Below, one piece after another: positions 608 through 9,335 of a DNA stretch of 64,000 bases (within the stretch, counting starts at the first letter, position 1; each line of letters starts with the position of its first letter). The notes beneath the pieces are model-generated. The model saw only the letters and a list, made by a program, of their open reading frames with translations. It had not been told where the DNA came from and did not search any database. Location: IMG/VR virus record IMGVR_UViG_2830022421_000002, positions 4,013 to 68,012 of that record; one strand, written 5' to 3'. The position numbers and the translations under genes are program-made. The DNA comes from a virus (taxonomy: Duplodnaviria > Caudoviricetes).

Positions 608-2224
608 TTAGCTATTTATCTGTATTAATATGTCTTGGTGTTTTAATTTATTTTCTCTCCATTCTTCAACCTGTAATGTGGGAGGGACTCCAATTGCTCT
701 GGTTAGCTCTTCCTCCATTATCCTTTTTACAAAATCTTCATTTCCTTTAGTGGTTACTATTGAATCATGGATAGTAAATATAGGCACTTGTTGCTCCCCT
801 TCTTCCCATATCCTTTTGCAGCATCTATGCAATACAATCTCACTTTCTATTGATTGGAGAAGGCAAGCTAATCTTGCATGCTGTTTTTTCCTATCAACAC
901 CTTTATATTGTCTTTTTATTATTTTAAATAATTCTGCAATAGAAGGGAATTTTTCTCTGTAATAAACTTTTAACCAATGGTTTTCATCATTAGGATTATC
1001 CCTGTTACTGGAGAAAATTAATGTAAACATAGTTGTTTTAGCATCTTCTCTGGATATATCAATTTCCTTTTCTTCTAAAATCCACCTTTGCACAGTTTCA
1101 TACATCTCTCCAGATGAAACAATCCTTTTGTATTCATCAAAATCAGAAGGACTTAGATTGTCAAAGAAATTTCCTAACATAATGGATATGGGGGTTGTGT
1201 TGGATGTTGTAGGGGTATTGAATAACCCTTGAATATTATTGGGTATTTGACTGAATTTTAAATTGGGATCTGTGTTTGACCAGAAATTAGGGTTTGTCAA
1301 TGCACTAACTAAGTAGGGTTGGCTGTTCTTTATATCTATTGAGACTAAGGGTTGTCCATCATAGGTTATAAAGTTCCTATAATCTTTTTGTATGTTGGTT
1401 AATACAGAATGTAATCTATGAATATTTGAGTCAATCTTAGCTTTATAATCATGAGTCTGTACTGCTTCAGCATTATAAATCAAGGCATTATATTGGCTTA
1501 TTGGATTTTTCTTCTCTCCAGAGTCTCTATTTATATCCCAAGCTTCTTCACCTTCTTCTAATTTTTTGTTTTTTAATATTCTACCATATTCTTTAGCCTT
1601 TTGGTAATCAATTCTCAGTTTTCTTTCATTATACCAATGGGATAAATATGAACAATCTAATAATTGATTTCTTTCAAAATCTCCTGTATCTTCATTATAA
1701 ACTGATTCCTCAATAGGTTCAATACTATTTTCAAATCTTCTATATGAATATCTAACTAAATCTGTATTCTCATATATTTCTGAGAATTTATAACCAATGG
1801 ATTTTTCTTCTGGAATGTAATAACCATCTGAGATAATAATTCCTGTATCAATCAAATAATCTAAATAGTCTTTATAATCTTTAAAGAATTTTTGAAGATA
1901 GGTTGAATTAAGAGGTATAAATCCATCTTTTGTAATAGAGTCTTTATTCTTCGCTGGTATAGCACTAATCAGACCAATAAGATACATTAGTTTATCCTTG
2001 TCAAATTTAAGTCCTTTTGAGCTTAAAATTTTGTCTCCATTCAATTCAAATGCACTATAATCAACAAGAGGGTAGTTTCTTAAATGATTGTCAATATCCA
2101 AGTTATCTGGTATAAGGGCAAAATATCCAGAATAAGCTCTCTTTATGTATAAAACTACATGAGAGTCTCCATTCTTCCTAAACTTCTCTATAATATTTCT
2201 AACAATCCTATATAACCACCCCAT
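608..2224 (-). CDS. Divergent family-A (PolA/T7 superfamily) nucleotide-polymerase-like protein, 538 aa
   Basis: Motif A-like SIDIKNSQP, motif B-like REDAKTTMFTLIFS and motif C-like TIHDSIV in the correct order, preceded by RLHSVLTN. No exonuclease motifs recognised. Confidence 0.55.
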   Translation of the reverse strand: MGWLYRIVRNIIEKFRKNGDSHVVLYIKRAYSGYFALIPDNLDIDNHLRNYPLVDYSAFELNGDKILSSKGLKFDKDKLMYLIGLISAIPAKNKDSITKDGFIPLNSTYLQKFFKDYKDYLDYLIDTGIIISDGYYIPEEKSIGYKFSEIYENTDLVRYSYRRFENSIEPIEESVYNEDTGDFERNQLLDCSYLSHWYNERKLRIDYQKAKEYGRILKNKKLEEGEEAWDINRDSGEKKNPISQYNALIYNAEAVQTHDYKAKIDSNIHRLHSVLTNIQKDYRNFITYDGQPLVSIDIKNSQPYLVSALTNPNFWSNTDPNLKFSQIPNNIQGLFNTPTTSNTTPISIMLGNFFDNLSPSDFDEYKRIVSSGEMYETVQRWILEEKEIDISREDAKTTMFTLIFSSNRDNPNDENHWLKVYYREKFPSIAELFKIIKRQYKGVDRKKQHARLACLLQSIESEIVLHRCCKRIWEEGEQQVPIFTIHDSIVTTKGNEDFVKRIMEEELTRAIGVPPTLQVEEWRENKLKHQDILIQINS

Positions 2225-2258
2225 CTCTCATCCATTATGTTAGGAAATAATTCAAAAT

Positions 2259-2295
2259 CTCATTTACTTTTTATTAAATATACAAATTAAGTGAG
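2259..2295. promoter_or_regulatory. Inverted repeat CTCATTTA-N21-TAAGTGAG upstream of the polymerase-like gene
   Basis: Seen directly; a near-identical arrangement recurs at 4514-4551. Confidence 0.5.
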
Positions 2296-2300
2296 ATTTA

Positions 2301-4481
2301 CTATATTATAAAATATCTAAGCAAATTATTCTCTACCTTGCCTATAGAGATCTTTCTCTCTCCAAAATTCAGAGGATTTTCTTTTATGGCTACATAGCTG
2401 TTCCTTGGTCTGGATGTTTCAAAATAAGCCTTAAATAGGCTGATAGAAGTTCTTGGTTTTATAGTCTTGTGGAAATGATATTTGACTATTGGTTCTATCT
2501 TCTCATGTATTTCTTCTGGTGTATATCCTTTTCCTGTTTCAAAGGCTTCTCTCATACTTATTCTTAGAGGGTGGTCTTCTGCCAGACACCAGAACATAAT
2601 AGCATTGATAAGCCCCTTGTAAGCTTTAATATTCATATGCCTTATTTCATAGAGGTAGTCTAATAGTTTATCAGATTCTACATATTCGTTCAAATCTATA
2701 AATCTTTCAAGGATAGGCTTCTCTTCTTTGGTGCAGGTTCTTAGTTTCTCTGCAACATACTTATTTAGAACACCTGTAGGCAGCTTTTCTACTTTCTCTT
2801 TCAAGTCTGCAACTAAAGCAGTCTGTAATGAATCTATTAATTCATTTCTGCTATCTGTGAAATGGTTCTCTATTCTCTGTTCTGCTGATTTTTCTTCATC
2901 AGTCCTATTGTTTTCATATTCTATCTGTGTTACCTGATGTCCTTCTGAAACTAAGGCTTTATATAGTTTCTCTTGATTAATATACAGTTCATTGAATAGT
3001 TGTTCTCTTTCTGTCAGAAAATCAATATTAAGGTAGGCTATATCATATTTTCCTTCATTTATAGTAGGTCTTATAAGTGGAATTGGCTGACCTCTGAATG
3101 GGGTTTCAAGGGCTTTGTCCAATATGGCAAGTTTCATTACATTGAATAAATCTATTAAATCCTTATCTTCTCCCTGTATAATATGGGCTGCATTTATCAA
3201 ATCTAAGACTTTATTAGCCTTTTTAATCAATGTATTTCTATATTTAGCTGTAGTCCTTTTAAACTTAGGCTCATAGTCTGTAGTGTTATAGATTATAGTA
3301 TCACTCAATATGCCATCTTTAATTCTGCATCTACCATAGATTTGAGTTATCTTCTTTGTAGTAAGCATTTGATGTGCATATTTTACATTAGAAACAGTGA
3401 TAAGGTGGTAAGTATCATTGATATCTATTCCAGAAAAATAGCTGCAAGTCATAAAATTGATTCTCTTAGGTAATGTAGAATCATCTTTCAATGGGTAATA
3501 ATAAGTTCCTGCATCTTTCCTGCTTGATTCACTGCACATGATAGCACATTCCTTCTGTGTAGATTCATCTATCATAGATATAATATTCTTTACCTGTGAG
3601 ACTGTATTATAGGCTATCAATATCTTATCTTCTGGATATTTTTTTATCAACTCTGTGACTGCATGATTGATGCTGTTAGACTGATTGATATGTATGAGCC
3701 TTATCTCTCTTTTCTTGTGGGATAATTCTTCTATTTCAAATCTGCATTCATTCTGGAATAGAGGATTGGAGAATTCCCCCATTGTAGCAGTTACAATACA
3801 CCTGTTCTTTACATCAAACTTAAAATAGTTATCTATTACTGTTTCTAAATTAGGTCTGTAGTTACTGTCTGCTTGGAGAAGATCTATTTCATCTACCATT
3901 AGGAAGCAATGTTTATAGGCTTCTTCCCCTAGTATATTCATCAAATAATCTAAGCTGTCTGCTACCACTAAAAACTTTAGAGGCTGAGTAGTATTTTGCT
4001 CCAAATAATTAATGATTTCATCTTTACTTACCCTGTCTGTAAATTCTCCTATGGAAGTGCCAACATATAGTACTTTTTTAGGGTTCAGATTATTTTCAGC
4101 CCATTTAAATTTGCTATAGGCTAGTTTCTTTGTAGGTACTACTATTATTGAATGTCTGGGTGATTTGAGTTCTAAGGTTGTTGCACCTACTCCTGTAGCT
4201 TTTTTGTCTACAATTCCATGAGGCAACTTTTGGATAAAATTAGATAGTCTGTATTCATCTGTGAAACCTTGAGATGAACCCCAAATCATAAAATAACCTT
4301 TGTGAATGGTAGTGATTGTTTCTTCTGGATTAGCTCCTGCCAGAGTATCTAAGACTGCTTCTGAAAATAAATCCTTGACTTGATTTTCTATTATCTCTTT
4401 AGGAATTATTTTTTCTTCTTCTTCTTCTTTTGCAGCCTCATATTTTTTGAGGCTGTCTAGTATGCTTATTGTTTTAGCCAT
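2301..4481 (-). CDS. Superfamily-2 helicase-like protein (origin-binding/replication type), 726 aa
   Basis: Motif I variant ATGVGATT, Ia VVPTKKL, II VDEID, III VTAT, V TCSYFSGIDI, VI QIYGRCR. Confidence 0.65.
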   Translation of the reverse strand: MAKTISILDSLKKYEAAKEEEEEKIIPKEIIENQVKDLFSEAVLDTLAGANPEETITTIHKGYFMIWGSSQGFTDEYRLSNFIQKLPHGIVDKKATGVGATTLELKSPRHSIIVVPTKKLAYSKFKWAENNLNPKKVLYVGTSIGEFTDRVSKDEIINYLEQNTTQPLKFLVVADSLDYLMNILGEEAYKHCFLMVDEIDLLQADSNYRPNLETVIDNYFKFDVKNRCIVTATMGEFSNPLFQNECRFEIEELSHKKREIRLIHINQSNSINHAVTELIKKYPEDKILIAYNTVSQVKNIISMIDESTQKECAIMCSESSRKDAGTYYYPLKDDSTLPKRINFMTCSYFSGIDINDTYHLITVSNVKYAHQMLTTKKITQIYGRCRIKDGILSDTIIYNTTDYEPKFKRTTAKYRNTLIKKANKVLDLINAAHIIQGEDKDLIDLFNVMKLAILDKALETPFRGQPIPLIRPTINEGKYDIAYLNIDFLTEREQLFNELYINQEKLYKALVSEGHQVTQIEYENNRTDEEKSAEQRIENHFTDSRNELIDSLQTALVADLKEKVEKLPTGVLNKYVAEKLRTCTKEEKPILERFIDLNEYVESDKLLDYLYEIRHMNIKAYKGLINAIMFWCLAEDHPLRISMREAFETGKGYTPEEIHEKIEPIVKYHFHKTIKPRTSISLFKAYFETSRPRNSYVAIKENPLNFGERKISIGKVENNLLRYFII

Positions 4482-4513: not shown

Positions 4514-4551
4514 CTCACTTAGGTCTTGGGTATTATTAGGATGTAAGTGAG
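4514..4551. promoter_or_regulatory. Inverted repeat CTCACTTA-N22-TAAGTGAG upstream of the helicase-like gene
   Basis: Perfect 8-bp inverted repeat seen directly; same half-site as at 2259-2295. Confidence 0.5.
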
Positions 4552-4554
4552 GGG

Positions 4555-6414
4555 TTAATTATCTAATCTTTGAAGCTCTTGTAATGTTTCTAAAATATCT
4601 TTATGAATAAAACTTGGATATAGCCTATAGCTTTTATCAAACATTTGAATACTTAAATTCTTATGTTTATTCAAGAATGAAAAAGTTTGTATATATAACT
4701 TTTCTAAATCATGTCCTCTGATTATAGTAAACCATTTGGGAAGGTAGAACTCCATACCATTAATTACTTCATATTTTACAATTTCCAAATTTTCATTTTT
4801 GTTTGGATAATTATCTTCTAATTTTGATATTACATTATTCACTATCGTTTGTATATCATGTTGAGATTTATTATAGAAGTTTATAATAGTATCTTCTTCA
4901 TTGAACCCTACTTTTTCCTTCTCATTGTTTTCTGATAAAATAAACATTACAAATGCTATAGGGTCAAAAATATAATTATCAACAGCATATCTATTTTTAT
5001 TACCTAAAACTAGAATTCTTTCATTGCCATTATTTTTTAAATCCCAATCAATAACTCCAAATGTAGTAGTGTTTTTAGCTTTTGTTAATGTGTTAACAAT
5101 ATTCTTCACTTTATCACAACCATCTTCTTCTGCAGAACTTCCTGCTGTGATGAATTGTAATATAATATCATTTGTTAAATAATTTTCAAATTGATTTTGG
5201 ATTATAGTATAAATATTCTCCAAATAAAATTTATCAATTGGAGCTTCTACAAATATTTGTTTAATATTCTCATAATATACACTAATAGAATTTAATCCAT
5301 TTGTTAGTGTTTTTATAGCTTCCTTTTTTGATGATTTTATAATGTATCCTAATTCTCTATGCATTCTATACAAATTTAGCTCTGGAGTTAAAGCCACTGT
5401 TGTTGGACTATGGGTTGTCATTATGACTTTGATATTATTTTCTTTTACCAAAACATTTTGTATAACATCAAGCATTTGCTTACTCATAGTTGGATGTAAA
5501 TATGCATCAGGCTCATCAAAAAGTATTACATCTGGAAATTGAGCTCCTGTATTAGATGAATAGATTGCCAAAATAAGTGAAAAAATTACCTTTTCACCAG
5601 AAGATAAAAAATCTGCGTTTAAGGTGGTGTTAGAATCTCTATCTATTAGTTTAATTTCAAAATTAAATCCCTCACTTTCAATATCTGGAGTTTCTAGGTG
5701 GTATCTAAATTGGGCTATTTGAGCTATTTTATTAAAAGTTATCCATGGGGCTTCATTGAGTTCCAAATTTGCTTTTTTTCTAGCCCAATATTGAATATAT
5801 AAAAATTTTAGATTAGCTGAAAACAAAGTTGAACTTGGTATAGGTTGGTATGCAATATAATAATAAGGGACTAAATATAAATCAGGGCTAGGGTGTAAAT
5901 CTATAATTTTTTTTATTATATCAATATCACTTTGACTAAATGCAGGAAATGTTACCTTCTTGTCTACATAGTCCTGATTACTTTTTCTAACACCAATAAC
6001 CTCAAGATATCTCTTATTAAGCATGCCTAAATTTATATTTTGATCTGAAAATAAATTTATATGATTTATATAGAATAACAATTTATAAGCAATATCTTGT
6101 CCTTTGGTAATAAGTGAATTCTTATCATAGTGATTCCCTAAATCTACATAAGGTGTATCAATCATTCTATATATAATATTTGTAGCAGTTTTATTCTCTG
6201 AAATAATCTCTGCATTATATATAGTAGTAGCATTACCCACACTATCAATCATTGTATGAGGCATACCCATCATAGGATTAACAGACTCATATAAGTGTGT
6301 TAGAAATTGGGTTTTTCCTGTTCCATTCTCACCTGTAATAACTATGAAATTAGGTAGATTGTACAGTTCTACTTCTTTTATGATTATATAGGGTTGGTTT
6401 ATTTTTATATCCAT
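4555..6414 (-). CDS. ABC/AAA_21 ATPase fused to a TOPRIM-like nuclease domain (OLD/PARIS-like), 619 aa
   Basis: Walker A GENGTGKT, signature LSSGEK, Walker B ILFDEPDAYLHP, TTHSP; C-terminal IFVEAPID, GVIDWD, YAVDNY. Confidence 0.75.
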   Translation of the reverse strand: MDIKINQPYIIIKEVELYNLPNFIVITGENGTGKTQFLTHLYESVNPMMGMPHTMIDSVGNATTIYNAEIISENKTATNIIYRMIDTPYVDLGNHYDKNSLITKGQDIAYKLLFYINHINLFSDQNINLGMLNKRYLEVIGVRKSNQDYVDKKVTFPAFSQSDIDIIKKIIDLHPSPDLYLVPYYYIAYQPIPSSTLFSANLKFLYIQYWARKKANLELNEAPWITFNKIAQIAQFRYHLETPDIESEGFNFEIKLIDRDSNTTLNADFLSSGEKVIFSLILAIYSSNTGAQFPDVILFDEPDAYLHPTMSKQMLDVIQNVLVKENNIKVIMTTHSPTTVALTPELNLYRMHRELGYIIKSSKKEAIKTLTNGLNSISVYYENIKQIFVEAPIDKFYLENIYTIIQNQFENYLTNDIILQFITAGSSAEEDGCDKVKNIVNTLTKAKNTTTFGVIDWDLKNNGNERILVLGNKNRYAVDNYIFDPIAFVMFILSENNEKEKVGFNEEDTIINFYNKSQHDIQTIVNNVISKLEDNYPNKNENLEIVKYEVINGMEFYLPKWFTIIRGHDLEKLYIQTFSFLNKHKNLSIQMFDKSYRLYPSFIHKDILETLQELQRLDN

Positions 6415-6496: not shown

Positions 6497-7729
6497 TCAA
6501 AGCAAATTCTTCATAGCTTCATCTATCTGACTATTTTCAAAACTATCCAAATAAATCTGAGTAGTCTTTAAATCTGAATGCCCTAAAGCCTCACTTATAA
6601 TAGCAACATTAATTCCAGACCTTTTCAAAATGGTTGCAAATGAATGTCTTGCACAATATGTCGTCAGAGGAATAGAAAGATTAATGCTTTCCCCAATCTT
6701 CTTTAGATTCTTATTAGCTACATAGGTTACTTTCTTTATCCTTCTGACTTGCTGTTCTGCTGTAGCATGTATAGAATCATCCAAAATAGGAAATATATAG
6801 TCATTATTACTATTCTCATATCTCTGTATAATTTCTAAAGCATAAGGTTGTAATAGAAAACTGATTTGTTTTCCTGTTTTATGCCTTTTATAGACTATTC
6901 TGGTTGAAACTATATTACTCCTTTTTAAATGTGCCATATCCACCATATTTATACCACACCCTAAATAACTGAATAGGAACAAGTCTTTACTGAACTGTAA
7001 TAAAGATTGAGGTCTTTTGCTGATTGTCTGTACATCCAGAGATATAATTTTCTGAATATCCTCTTTAAGAATAGACCTCTTTGGTGTAGAATCTTTCAGC
7101 TTAGAGACATTATATTCATTAAATGGATAATAGTCTTTCTTTACAATGTTATCCTTCACAGCCTTATTATAGACTGCTTTAAGAGTCCTCATTTTTATGC
7201 TGATACTATTGTTTTTATTTCCTATGTTTCTTAAATAAGTTTCATATTTATTCAGAAATGGTACATCTATATCTACAAATTGTAGTTGATTAATTTTTGT
7301 AAACCTTTCTAAAGAATTATACAATGCTTGATAATGGGTTGCATTGCCTATTCTATTTTCTTTTGTCAGTTTTTCTATGACTGAATTTAGATAATCACTT
7401 ATAGATATATTCTTTGTTGGTCTTTCTACAGCCTCAATTAATTGATTTAAAGAAAAGTCTTTTCCTATAGATTGAAATTCCAAGACTTGTTTTTGAAACT
7501 TAGATAATTTTTCTGTTATGATATTTTCTAAATATTCAAAATTAGGGCAATTAGGCTTAATCTTATTTTTTGTAGCATCCCAATAGCTTTTTTCTATAGA
7601 AATACCTAATCTTATTACTTTCTTTTTTCTGTCTTTTACAAGCCTTAAAACTATTGGTATATAGCCTTTTGATGTTAATCTGTAGGTCTCTGCGACTGCT
7701 TCTATTTTTACTCTCATTTTTGTAGCCAT
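6497..7729 (-). CDS. Tyrosine integrase (Bacteroidetes type) of the left island, 410 aa
   Basis: N-terminal arm-binding domain, SYLGCGINMVD, YCARHSFA, LGHSDLKTTQIY. Confidence 0.92.
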   Translation of the reverse strand: MATKMRVKIEAVAETYRLTSKGYIPIVLRLVKDRKKKVIRLGISIEKSYWDATKNKIKPNCPNFEYLENIITEKLSKFQKQVLEFQSIGKDFSLNQLIEAVERPTKNISISDYLNSVIEKLTKENRIGNATHYQALYNSLERFTKINQLQFVDIDVPFLNKYETYLRNIGNKNNSISIKMRTLKAVYNKAVKDNIVKKDYYPFNEYNVSKLKDSTPKRSILKEDIQKIISLDVQTISKRPQSLLQFSKDLFLFSYLGCGINMVDMAHLKRSNIVSTRIVYKRHKTGKQISFLLQPYALEIIQRYENSNNDYIFPILDDSIHATAEQQVRRIKKVTYVANKNLKKIGESINLSIPLTTYCARHSFATILKRSGINVAIISEALGHSDLKTTQIYLDSFENSQIDEAMKNLL

Positions 7730-7823: not shown

Positions 7824-7837
7824 TCCCACAATAAAAA

Positions 7838-7924
7838 GGAGAGGTGCTCGAGTGGTTGAAGAGGCACGCCTGGAAAGCATGTATACGGGTAACTGTATCG
7901 AGAGTTCGAATCTCTTCCTCTCCG
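7838..7924 (+). tRNA. tRNA-Ser(GGA), CCA not encoded; probable prophage attL
   Basis: Acceptor GGAGAGG/CCTCTCC+G, anticodon loop CT-GGA-AA, long variable arm, T arm GAGAG-TTCGAAT-CTCTT. One C-A mismatch in the anticodon stem. Confidence 0.95.
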
Positions 7925-8075
7925 CCTGATAAATAGATGATTATGAATATATAGTCATCTATTTTCATGTTGTATATATCCAAAAATATAAATATATTTG
8001 GGGGCATATCAGGGCAAAAAGTGGACTTTTGAGGAAAAACCGTGCAATTTGTGTGCAAAAAAACAATAGTAAATT

Positions 8076-9335
8076 ATGGCATCAGTAAAATTATATCTTG
8101 ATACCCGTGTTCCTCGTAAAGATGGAACTTATCCGCTAAAGATAGCTGTTACACATAAAGGGAAATTTTTCATCAATCTTAAAATATATCTGAAAGAGGA
8201 CCAGCTTGTAGGCGGCGAAGTCGTTGGTCATAAGAGCAAGAAAATTTATAATACCATAATAGAGCAGTGGCTTATTAATGTAAAAAAAGTATTGTTAGAC
8301 TTAGCTGCAAATGGAAAGATTAATAATCTATCCCACCAGCAGCTCAAAAATATAATTGAAAATTATAATGATTCAAATGAGCCCGATGATGAAACGCCAT
8401 ATTTATTTAAGGAACATTTGGAAAGATTTATCTCAACTAAAGAAAAGAAGAATACAAAAGACATATATAGGGCTACTCTCAATAAAATCAAAAAACATAC
8501 TGATATCGATAATTTAACTTTTGAAGACATTAACCTATCATGGCTGAAAGGATTCCAGCAAAATATATCAGAAGAAGGACTTAGCATTAATGCTCAAGGA
8601 ATTCATTTTCGCAATATAAGAGCAATATTTAATGATGCCATAGACGAAGAATTGATTTCACAAAGCATATATCCATTCAGACGATTTAAGATAAAAACCG
8701 AAAAGACAATTAAAAGATCTTTGACTGTTGAGGATTTAATACAATTGCGCGATTATCCATGCGAAGAACATCAGATGAAGTATCGGGATTTATTCATGCT
8801 TACATTTTACCTAATTGGGATAAATGTCATTGACCTTCTACATCTGAAAGAAATAATAAATGGGAGGATTGAATACCGAAGAGAAAAAACTTACAGATTA
8901 TATAGTATTGAAGTATTACCTGAAGCTCAAGCTATTCTTGACAAATACAAAGGGAAAGATTATCTATTAAACGCACTTGATACGTACAATTATTACAAAG
9001 GATTTGCAGACAAGATAAATAAAAATATACAAGAAATAGGGCCATTTGAGATAGTAGAAAAAATAGTAAAAGGGAAAAAGAAGAAAATTAAAGAAAGAAA
9101 ACCCCTATTTCCTAGCATAACAACATACTGGGCCCGCCACACATGGGCCACAATCGCAGCCTCTCTTGATATTCCCAAGGAAACTATCGCAGCTGCTTTG
9201 GGACATGGTGGAAATTCTGTTACTGATATCTATATCAACTTCGATCAGAAGAAGATAGATGATGCGAACAAAAAAGTACTGAAGCATATCAGAGAATATG
9301 GAAAACTAAAAAAGAAGAAAGCCTCCCAAAAATAG
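8076..9335 (+). CDS. Prophage tyrosine integrase, 419 aa
   Basis: Arm-binding N-terminus, YLIGINVIDL, YWARHTWATIA, LGHG...TDIY; immediately 3' of the tRNA. Confidence 0.92.
   Translation: MASVKLYLDTRVPRKDGTYPLKIAVTHKGKFFINLKIYLKEDQLVGGEVVGHKSKKIYNTIIEQWLINVKKVLLDLAANGKINNLSHQQLKNIIENYNDSNEPDDETPYLFKEHLERFISTKEKKNTKDIYRATLNKIKKHTDIDNLTFEDINLSWLKGFQQNISEEGLSINAQGIHFRNIRAIFNDAIDEELISQSIYPFRRFKIKTEKTIKRSLTVEDLIQLRDYPCEEHQMKYRDLFMLTFYLIGINVIDLLHLKEIINGRIEYRREKTYRLYSIEVLPEAQAILDKYKGKDYLLNALDTYNYYKGFADKINKNIQEIGPFEIVEKIVKGKKKKIKERKPLFPSITTYWARHTWATIAASLDIPKETIAAALGHGGNSVTDIYINFDQKKIDDANKKVLKHIREYGKLKKKKASQK

Follow-up and report, generated by a model that had tools for sequence, protein, structure and literature searches.

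The closest described systems are two groups of family-A enzymes carried by mobile elements. The TV-Pol family was presented as a predicted primase-polymerase (Iyer, Abhiman and Aravind 2008, PMC2579912), and CCPol-MP, together with the Cch2 helicase of SCCmec, is a family-A primase-polymerase/helicase module that has been shown biochemically (PMC7581432). The locus analysed here lies at the beginning of a DNA stretch of 64,000 nucleotides (the window; positions 4,013 to 68,012 of the IMG/VR virus record IMGVR_UViG_2830022421_000002), where a gene for a 538-amino-acid (aa) family-A polymerase-like protein stands directly downstream of a gene for a 726-aa helicase-like protein. On balance, the two genes appear to be the replication module of an integrative, defence-carrying island of 15.1 kb, inserted in a tRNA-Ser gene of a Dysgonomonas genome. 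Coordinates are collected in Table 1; those preceded by L002 refer to the longer locus that includes the DNA left of the window.

The AlphaFold model of the polymerase, which was built from 28 homologues, is confident (pLDDT 89.2, pTM 0.85) and shows a DNA-binding-type, winged-helix-like N-terminus fused to a bare family-A catalytic core. The top Foldseek matches to this model were all family-A DNA polymerases (probability 1.0, E about 1e-6). In an unbiased structure search of 48,161 chains, matches were obtained to the apicoplast polymerase (Z 13.9), Aquifex Pol I (Z 13.7), Klenow (Z 13.5), Pol nu (Z 12.9), T7 DNA polymerase (Z 12.8), the yeast mitochondrial RNA polymerase (Z 9.4) and T7 RNA polymerase (Z 7.8), with about 280 residues aligned at a root-mean-square deviation of 3.6-4.0 over model residues of about 170-527; folds outside the family-A superfamily all stayed at or below Z 5.5. 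Two long antiparallel helices (residues 207-224 and 241-256) occupy the position of the thumb. No exonuclease domain is present, since in the same search the N-terminal 170 residues matched only winged helices, and these weakly (Z about 5 for residues of about 40-165; Fur, LexA, TubR, ORC/Cdc6 and MCM). Most matches start near residue 73, which makes the winged-helix-like domain part of the architecture of the family.

The catalytic residues support the same assignment. D297 of motif A, K396 of motif B and H486 and D487 of motif C were unchanged in 28 of 28 close homologues and, together with R270 of the hairpin preceding the palm, in all 44 homologues of a wider set with identities down to 20%. 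Judged by this conservation, the motifs are not a product of chance. The homology to Pol I is visible through fold and motifs only: the protein had no match in Pfam, NCBIfam or PADLOC (E≤0.01) and no sequence match in the PDB, and its sole match in PHROGs was phrog_4756, of unknown function, over the motif region (E 1.7e-7). The family is nevertheless very large, with 3,642 cluster representatives at E≤0.001, and has no Pfam model. As is typical of mobile elements, its distribution is patchy: of 401 genomes that sample the phylum, 12 contain it. With tblastn, relatives turned up in no more than three huge phages, all uncultured, and a single Hymenobacter plasmid.

A preliminary description of this DNA, made from the letters alone, had already recognised both open reading frames (ORFs), read PolA-type motifs A, B and C in the shorter one without an exonuclease domain, called the longer one a superfamily 2 (SF2) helicase, and placed both in an integrase island; all of this was borne out. 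It had also named a structure search for a palm/fingers fold and the conservation of the Asp residues in motifs A and C as checks, and both came out in its favour, with D297 and D487 invariant. As neither ORF matches a Pfam, NCBIfam or PADLOC model, reading the motifs outdid the profile libraries.

The model of the helicase (pLDDT 82.5) contains a generic SF2 core of two RecA-like domains, for which Foldseek gave a probability of 1.0 and the unbiased search Z values of 14-15 to FANCM, HrpB, Mss116, INO80 and WRN, no SF2 subfamily standing out. An assignment to the UL9 type was considered and rejected; the origin-binding protein of herpes simplex virus 1 occurs among the Foldseek matches and is not prominent in the unbiased search. 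The protein itself had no match in Pfam, NCBIfam or PADLOC (E≤0.01) and no sequence match in the PDB; many of its homologues carry PF00270. Motifs II (DEID), III (TAT) and VI (QxxGRxR) are invariant among 26 aligned homologues. The Walker A pattern GxGK(T/S) is absent, Ala replacing Lys in all 26, and a distant relative in Psychrobacter phage D'Alembert, annotated as a DEAD-like helicase, has GVGGTT, likewise without the Walker lysine. K93, which opens the loop and is invariant, may stand in for it. An SF2 helicase clade without a Walker lysine constitutes a mechanistic puzzle in its own right.

The functional assignment is supported by gene context. More than 50 related Bacteroidales elements were found to share one backbone, composed of an integrase, an optional helicase, either the polymerase or a phage-type replication initiator, an 89-aa protein, a Sak4-like ATPase (AAA_24, matching Sak4-like annealing proteins), DUF3871 and an optional RadC. 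The order integrase, optional helicase, polymerase, 89-aa protein, AAA_24, DUF3871, optional RadC is conserved in dozens of loci, and the integrase is kept next to the replication genes. When 52 helicase loci were retrieved from species-representative genomes by the lysine-less P-loop pattern, their order was integrase, helicase, a protein of about 210-236 aa (family 7), 89-aa protein, AAA_24, DUF3871 and RadC. Family 7, which fills the polymerase slot in most of the helicase-bearing sister elements, carries an HTH_36 domain, and its PHROGs match is phrog_270, 'replication initiation protein'. The polymerase sits exactly in the family-7 slot in the window element and in locus L035, and this exchange of position with a replication initiator suggests an equivalent function. 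Family 7 was also considered as a homologue of the polymerase N-terminus and rejected (hhalign probability 0.6%), so the swap is positional only. The contig that carries L035 (CALEBD010000154.1) is binned as 'uncultured Clostridium sp.'; it holds a Bacteroides-type element with a polymerase identical to that of L162, and the label is probably a binning error. The Bacteroides elements with helicase and polymerase (L124, L132, L162 and L189-L191) share a single conserved site, which lies downstream of ffh, folD and a PGA_cap gene.

The polymerase belongs to the backbone, and the helicase is its recurrent but facultative partner. The 80 closest polymerase relatives were taken from metagenomes, and 52 of them had at least 2.3 kb of upstream sequence; a helicase was present in the locus in 25 of these 52, and about 22 of the 80 had it immediately upstream in the same orientation. 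The remaining close loci consist of integrase, polymerase, 89-aa protein, AAA_24 and DUF3871. On a tree of 49 polymerases (quick IQ-TREE) the helicase-upstream state needs at least five changes, and the near-identical polymerases L118 and L119 differ in having a helicase upstream. Near ten distant polymerases the integrase is usually within 3 kb and a helicase occurs in none, while only 2 of the 52 loci retrieved through the helicase contain the polymerase. A fixed helicase-polymerase operon was rejected on these counts and on the repeated gain and loss. The preliminary description had suggested an SF2-linked, TV-Pol-like replicon; the replicon part gains from the slot shared with the initiator, and the pairing has turned out not to be fixed.

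As a replication module the genes would work in the following way. The polymerase would bind the excised element DNA through its N-terminal domain and start and/or extend DNA synthesis as a primase-polymerase resembling TV-Pol and CCPol; the helicase, where present, would open the duplex; and the conserved genes downstream (89-aa protein, Sak4-like ATPase, DUF3871) would support replication or recombination. The Sak4-like AAA_24 and RadC in the backbone and the integrases found beside the distant relatives too are in line with this scheme.

Several points weigh against it. Excision and replication of the element are inferred, and for an origin there are candidates only, namely the inverted repeats that are conserved between elements and a non-coding stretch of 690 bp. 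The ATPase activity of the helicase is uncertain because the Walker lysine is missing, and helicase and polymerase need not act as a pair because many elements have the polymerase without the helicase. A counterpart of the OB-fold subunit MP was not recognised; for the 89-aa protein, which was not folded, the ESM Atlas gave no match. As to sequence relationships, the family profiles A1 and A4 matched no PDB polymerase at E≤1, so that no sequence link to Pol I was obtained. The same profiles gave no match in Microcystis phage Ma-LMM01 (AB231700), where no candidate passed a first-look filter, nor in Vibrio phage 1.063.O (MG592441). The hhalign comparison of the polymerase with divPolA2 AUR84708 was not significant (probability 0.4%), the aligned stretch being the equivalent motif region.

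It is tempting to go further, and a bolder proposal is offered here as a tentative one, which may well not hold in full: that the fusion of a winged helix with a family-A core yields a site-specific primase-polymerase sufficient by itself, with no need of a single-stranded-DNA-binding (SSB) subunit, and that with a helicase clade hydrolysing ATP without a Walker lysine it forms an undescribed two-protein replisome driving widespread defence-carrying islands of gut Bacteroidales, a family-A counterpart of pipolins. If true, a primase-polymerase of family A in a single chain would make a useful enzyme and would extend the CCPol result beyond Bacillota. Islands of this kind occur commonly in human-gut Bacteroides and Dysgonomonas metagenomes, and the defence genes that they move include ApeA, SIR2, OLD-like ATPases and restriction enzymes; their mode of replication would explain the spread of this cargo.

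In the window element the defence genes flank the module. The 622-aa SIR2 protein adjoining the polymerase matches ThsA/Dsr-type SIR2 over residues of about 10-240, and its C-terminal part of about 380 residues has no match. The gene upstream of the helicase encodes an ABC-type ATPase with a Toprim-like C-terminus, a single-gene candidate of the OLD/PARIS type, for which related elements had no homologue; its best PADLOC matches are ATPase-Toprim_I-B and the fused, PARIS-like AriAB. In the slot after the polymerase, 34 elements have the 89-aa/AAA_24 genes directly adjoining the polymerase, 13 have an inserted ApeA (ApeA_NTD1 and HEPN_Apea; PADLOC PDC-S58), and a SIR2 homologue occurs there in none of the related elements fetched. 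This HEPN-type ApeA overlaps the polymerase stop codon (L146:9533-10834 and 12 other loci, human-gut Bacteroides elements). Where an HTH_36 initiator replaces the polymerase (L051), a type IIG restriction-modification gene fills the slot. The slot between integrase and helicase, which here holds the OLD-like gene, holds PDC-S31 in a Dysgonomonas gadei element. On this evidence of gene content, SIR2 and the OLD-like ATPase are predicted anti-phage cargo in two variable slots and not partners of the polymerase; SIR2 stands next to it without a functional link because the slots are variable defence slots. A partnership of the polymerase with SIR2, and with it the nucleotide-synthesising sensor put forward in the preliminary description, is not supported, given the variable slot contents.

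The Z values bear on what the polymerase makes. That it is a single-subunit RNA polymerase, or an RNA-making primase, which transcribes or primes the element genes from the inverted-repeat sites, would agree with the matches to the mitochondrial and T7 RNA polymerases, with the name 'DNA-directed RNA polymerase' on two UniRef homologues and with the HDS of motif C, which is found in T7 RNA polymerase as well. We regard this as improbable, since the DNA polymerases match clearly better (Z 13-14) and the inverted repeats are present in elements without the polymerase too. Moreover, in comparison with Klenow, the stretch HRLHS..TNxQK around R270 appears to resemble the primer-contact motif GRLSS..NLQN of Pol I, and Q302, at Asp+5 by motif spacing, presumably takes the place of the steric-gate Glu, with which it is isosteric. 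The Z-scores and these two comparisons together favour DNA over RNA synthesis.

A different division of labour would have the polymerase act mainly on incoming or damaged element DNA, either making the complementary strand after single-strand entry or serving a synthesis that depends on recombination and involves the Sak4-like ATPase; autonomous replication after excision would then not be its main task. The linkage to this annealing ATPase and RadC and the many elements without a dedicated helicase would fit, and the option was raised for PolA-SSB primases (PMC10061031). The exchange of position with a replication-initiation-type protein speaks against it, as does the element itself, in which no relaxase or conjugation gene was seen; the idea is unlikely. 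Still more doubtful, and in our opinion very improbable, is that polymerase and helicase, with or without SIR2, make up an anti-phage defence system. Defence genes do stand on both sides of the module, and the possibility was left open for PolA-SSB primases in the work cited above. Neither protein has a PADLOC match, however; the polymerase belongs to the backbone while the flanking defence genes differ between elements, SIR2 being missing from every related element fetched, and gains and losses of the helicase recur among polymerases that are almost identical. Replication of the element by the polymerase, assisted in part of the elements by the helicase, is therefore retained as the preferred explanation.

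The borders of the element are given by an exact 48-bp direct repeat (100% identity) whose copies are 15,134 bp apart. The repeat contains the 5' part of the tRNA-Ser gene, not the usual 3' part, so that, at the integrase end, element DNA lies in front of the intact tRNA-Ser. Between the repeats the genes on the minus strand follow in the order integrase, OLD-like ATPase-Toprim, helicase, polymerase, SIR2, 89-aa protein and DUF3871, after which come three more ORFs (334, 362 and 427 aa); the 427-aa one has a weak exonuclease-like match (phrog_298). The G+C content is about 0.26-0.34 across the element, compared with 0.36-0.40 in the left flank. Rfam found only the tRNA, and a scan for sigma-70 promoters stayed at chance level. 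The gap between helicase and polymerase measures 76 bp and contains no ORF.

An inverted repeat directly upstream of the helicase gene recurs imperfectly in this gap, and further copies were found before DUF3871 and after the 334-aa gene; its arms are enriched in the element (7 matches, 0.74 expected). In elements of Dysgonomonas and Bacteroides, some of them without the polymerase, the helicase gene has the same inverted repeat in front of it, for which a role as an operator or within an origin is conceivable. In the element but outside the window, a 690-bp non-coding stretch (L002:3301-3989) with repeated GGTGTG/CACACC motifs and one copy of the inverted repeat is a candidate origin or regulatory region. 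On the other side of the tRNA-Ser, a second tyrosine integrase (8076-9335, plus strand) starts 150 bp past the 3' end of the gene and is followed by low-G+C ORFs and, from about 13,400, by DNA of 44-47% G+C; the tRNA-Ser may then be a double integration site.

Table 1. Features of the island and its borders (window positions unless preceded by L002)
Feature	Position	Strand	Remarks
SIR2-domain protein, first 201 codons	1..603	-	full ORF L002:6735-8603, 622 aa; SIR2_2 and ThsA-like SIR2 matches
Polymerase ORF	608..2224	-	538 aa; winged-helix-like N-terminus and minimal family-A core (thumb, palm, fingers)
Motif C, I-H486-D487-S488 (residues 485-488)	761..772	-	turn between strands 482-485 and 488-492
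Motif B / O-helix, R392-EDAK396...F400...F404 (RxxxK)	1013..1051	-	helix 392-404 in model; K396 invariant
Motif A, D297-IKNSQP (residues 297-303)	1316..1336	-	from translation; D297 ends palm strand 291-298 in model
R270, invariant	1415..1417	-	beta-hairpin preceding palm; HRLHS..TNxQK
Imperfect copy of CTCACTTA-N22-TAAGTGAG	2259..2295	.	between helicase and polymerase genes
Helicase ORF	2301..4481	-	726 aa; SF2 fold and helical C-terminal region without clear match
Helicase motif II, D197-E-I-D200	3882..3893	-	D197, E198, D200 invariant
P-loop without lysine, K93-KATGVGAT101 (GxGAT for GxGKT)	4179..4205	-	26/26 homologues; K93 invariant
Inverted repeat CTCACTTA-N22-TAAGTGAG	4514..4551	.	directly upstream of helicase gene
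OLD-like ABC-ATPase/Toprim protein	4555..6414	-	619 aa; PADLOC ATPase-Toprim_I-B 5e-24, AriAB 2e-20
Tyrosine integrase of the element	6497..7729	-	Arm-DNA-bind_5, Phage_int_SAM_5 and Phage_integrase domains
attR, 48-bp repeat	7833..7880 (= L002:15833-15880)	+	5 nt and first 43 nt of tRNA-Ser
tRNA-Ser(GGA), integration target	7838..7926	+	tRNA search, Rfam
Twin of attR repeat	L002:699-746, left of window		beside tatD

Compared with TV-Pol, the polymerase described here shares the bare family-A core without 3'-5' or 5'-3' nuclease domains, the coiled-coil thumb, the hairpin with a conserved Arg, the RRM palm with two Asp and the RxxxK of the fingers, as well as the occurrence in integrase-linked mobile elements, Bacteroidetes included. 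The integrase linkage was found in most loci here and no D5-like helicase was seen; the partner is an SF2 enzyme instead of a D5-like SF3 helicase, and the N-domain is alpha/beta and winged-helix-like, whereas that of TV-Pol was described as all-helical. The module is also analogous to CCPol-MP/Cch2, its only biochemically tested analogue, and to the PolA-SSB systems of Bacillota; in all of them a family-A polymerase lacking an exonuclease is encoded next to a helicase and a site-specific recombinase on a chromosomal island. There are several differences: in those systems the OB-fold subunit is separate, while here a DNA-binding-type domain is fused to the core and the gap between the two genes holds no small ORF for such a subunit; the helicases are of the D5/COG3378 or DUF927 type and not SF2; large serine recombinases take the place of the tyrosine integrase; the hosts are Bacillota, not Bacteroidota; and the polymerases are sufficiently Pol I-like to be annotated as PolA, whereas the present one is invisible to profile searches.

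The protein resembles divPolA2 of Caudoviricetes (Yutin et al. 2024, PMC11348598) in being a PolA that has diverged but kept its palm intact, and in having a globular domain without assignment at its N-terminus; divPolA2 is phage-borne and was described without a homologous thumb, whereas helices at the thumb position are present in our model. The likeness to pipolins (PMC5695915, PMC11551731) is one of concept, these being integrative elements that encode a primer-independent polymerase themselves and serve as exchangeable defence-gene reservoirs; their polymerase, piPolB, belongs to family B and is unrelated. What the present locus adds to these systems is the SF2 partner, a slot in which the polymerase and a Rep-type protein replace each other, and defence hotspots on either side of the replication genes.

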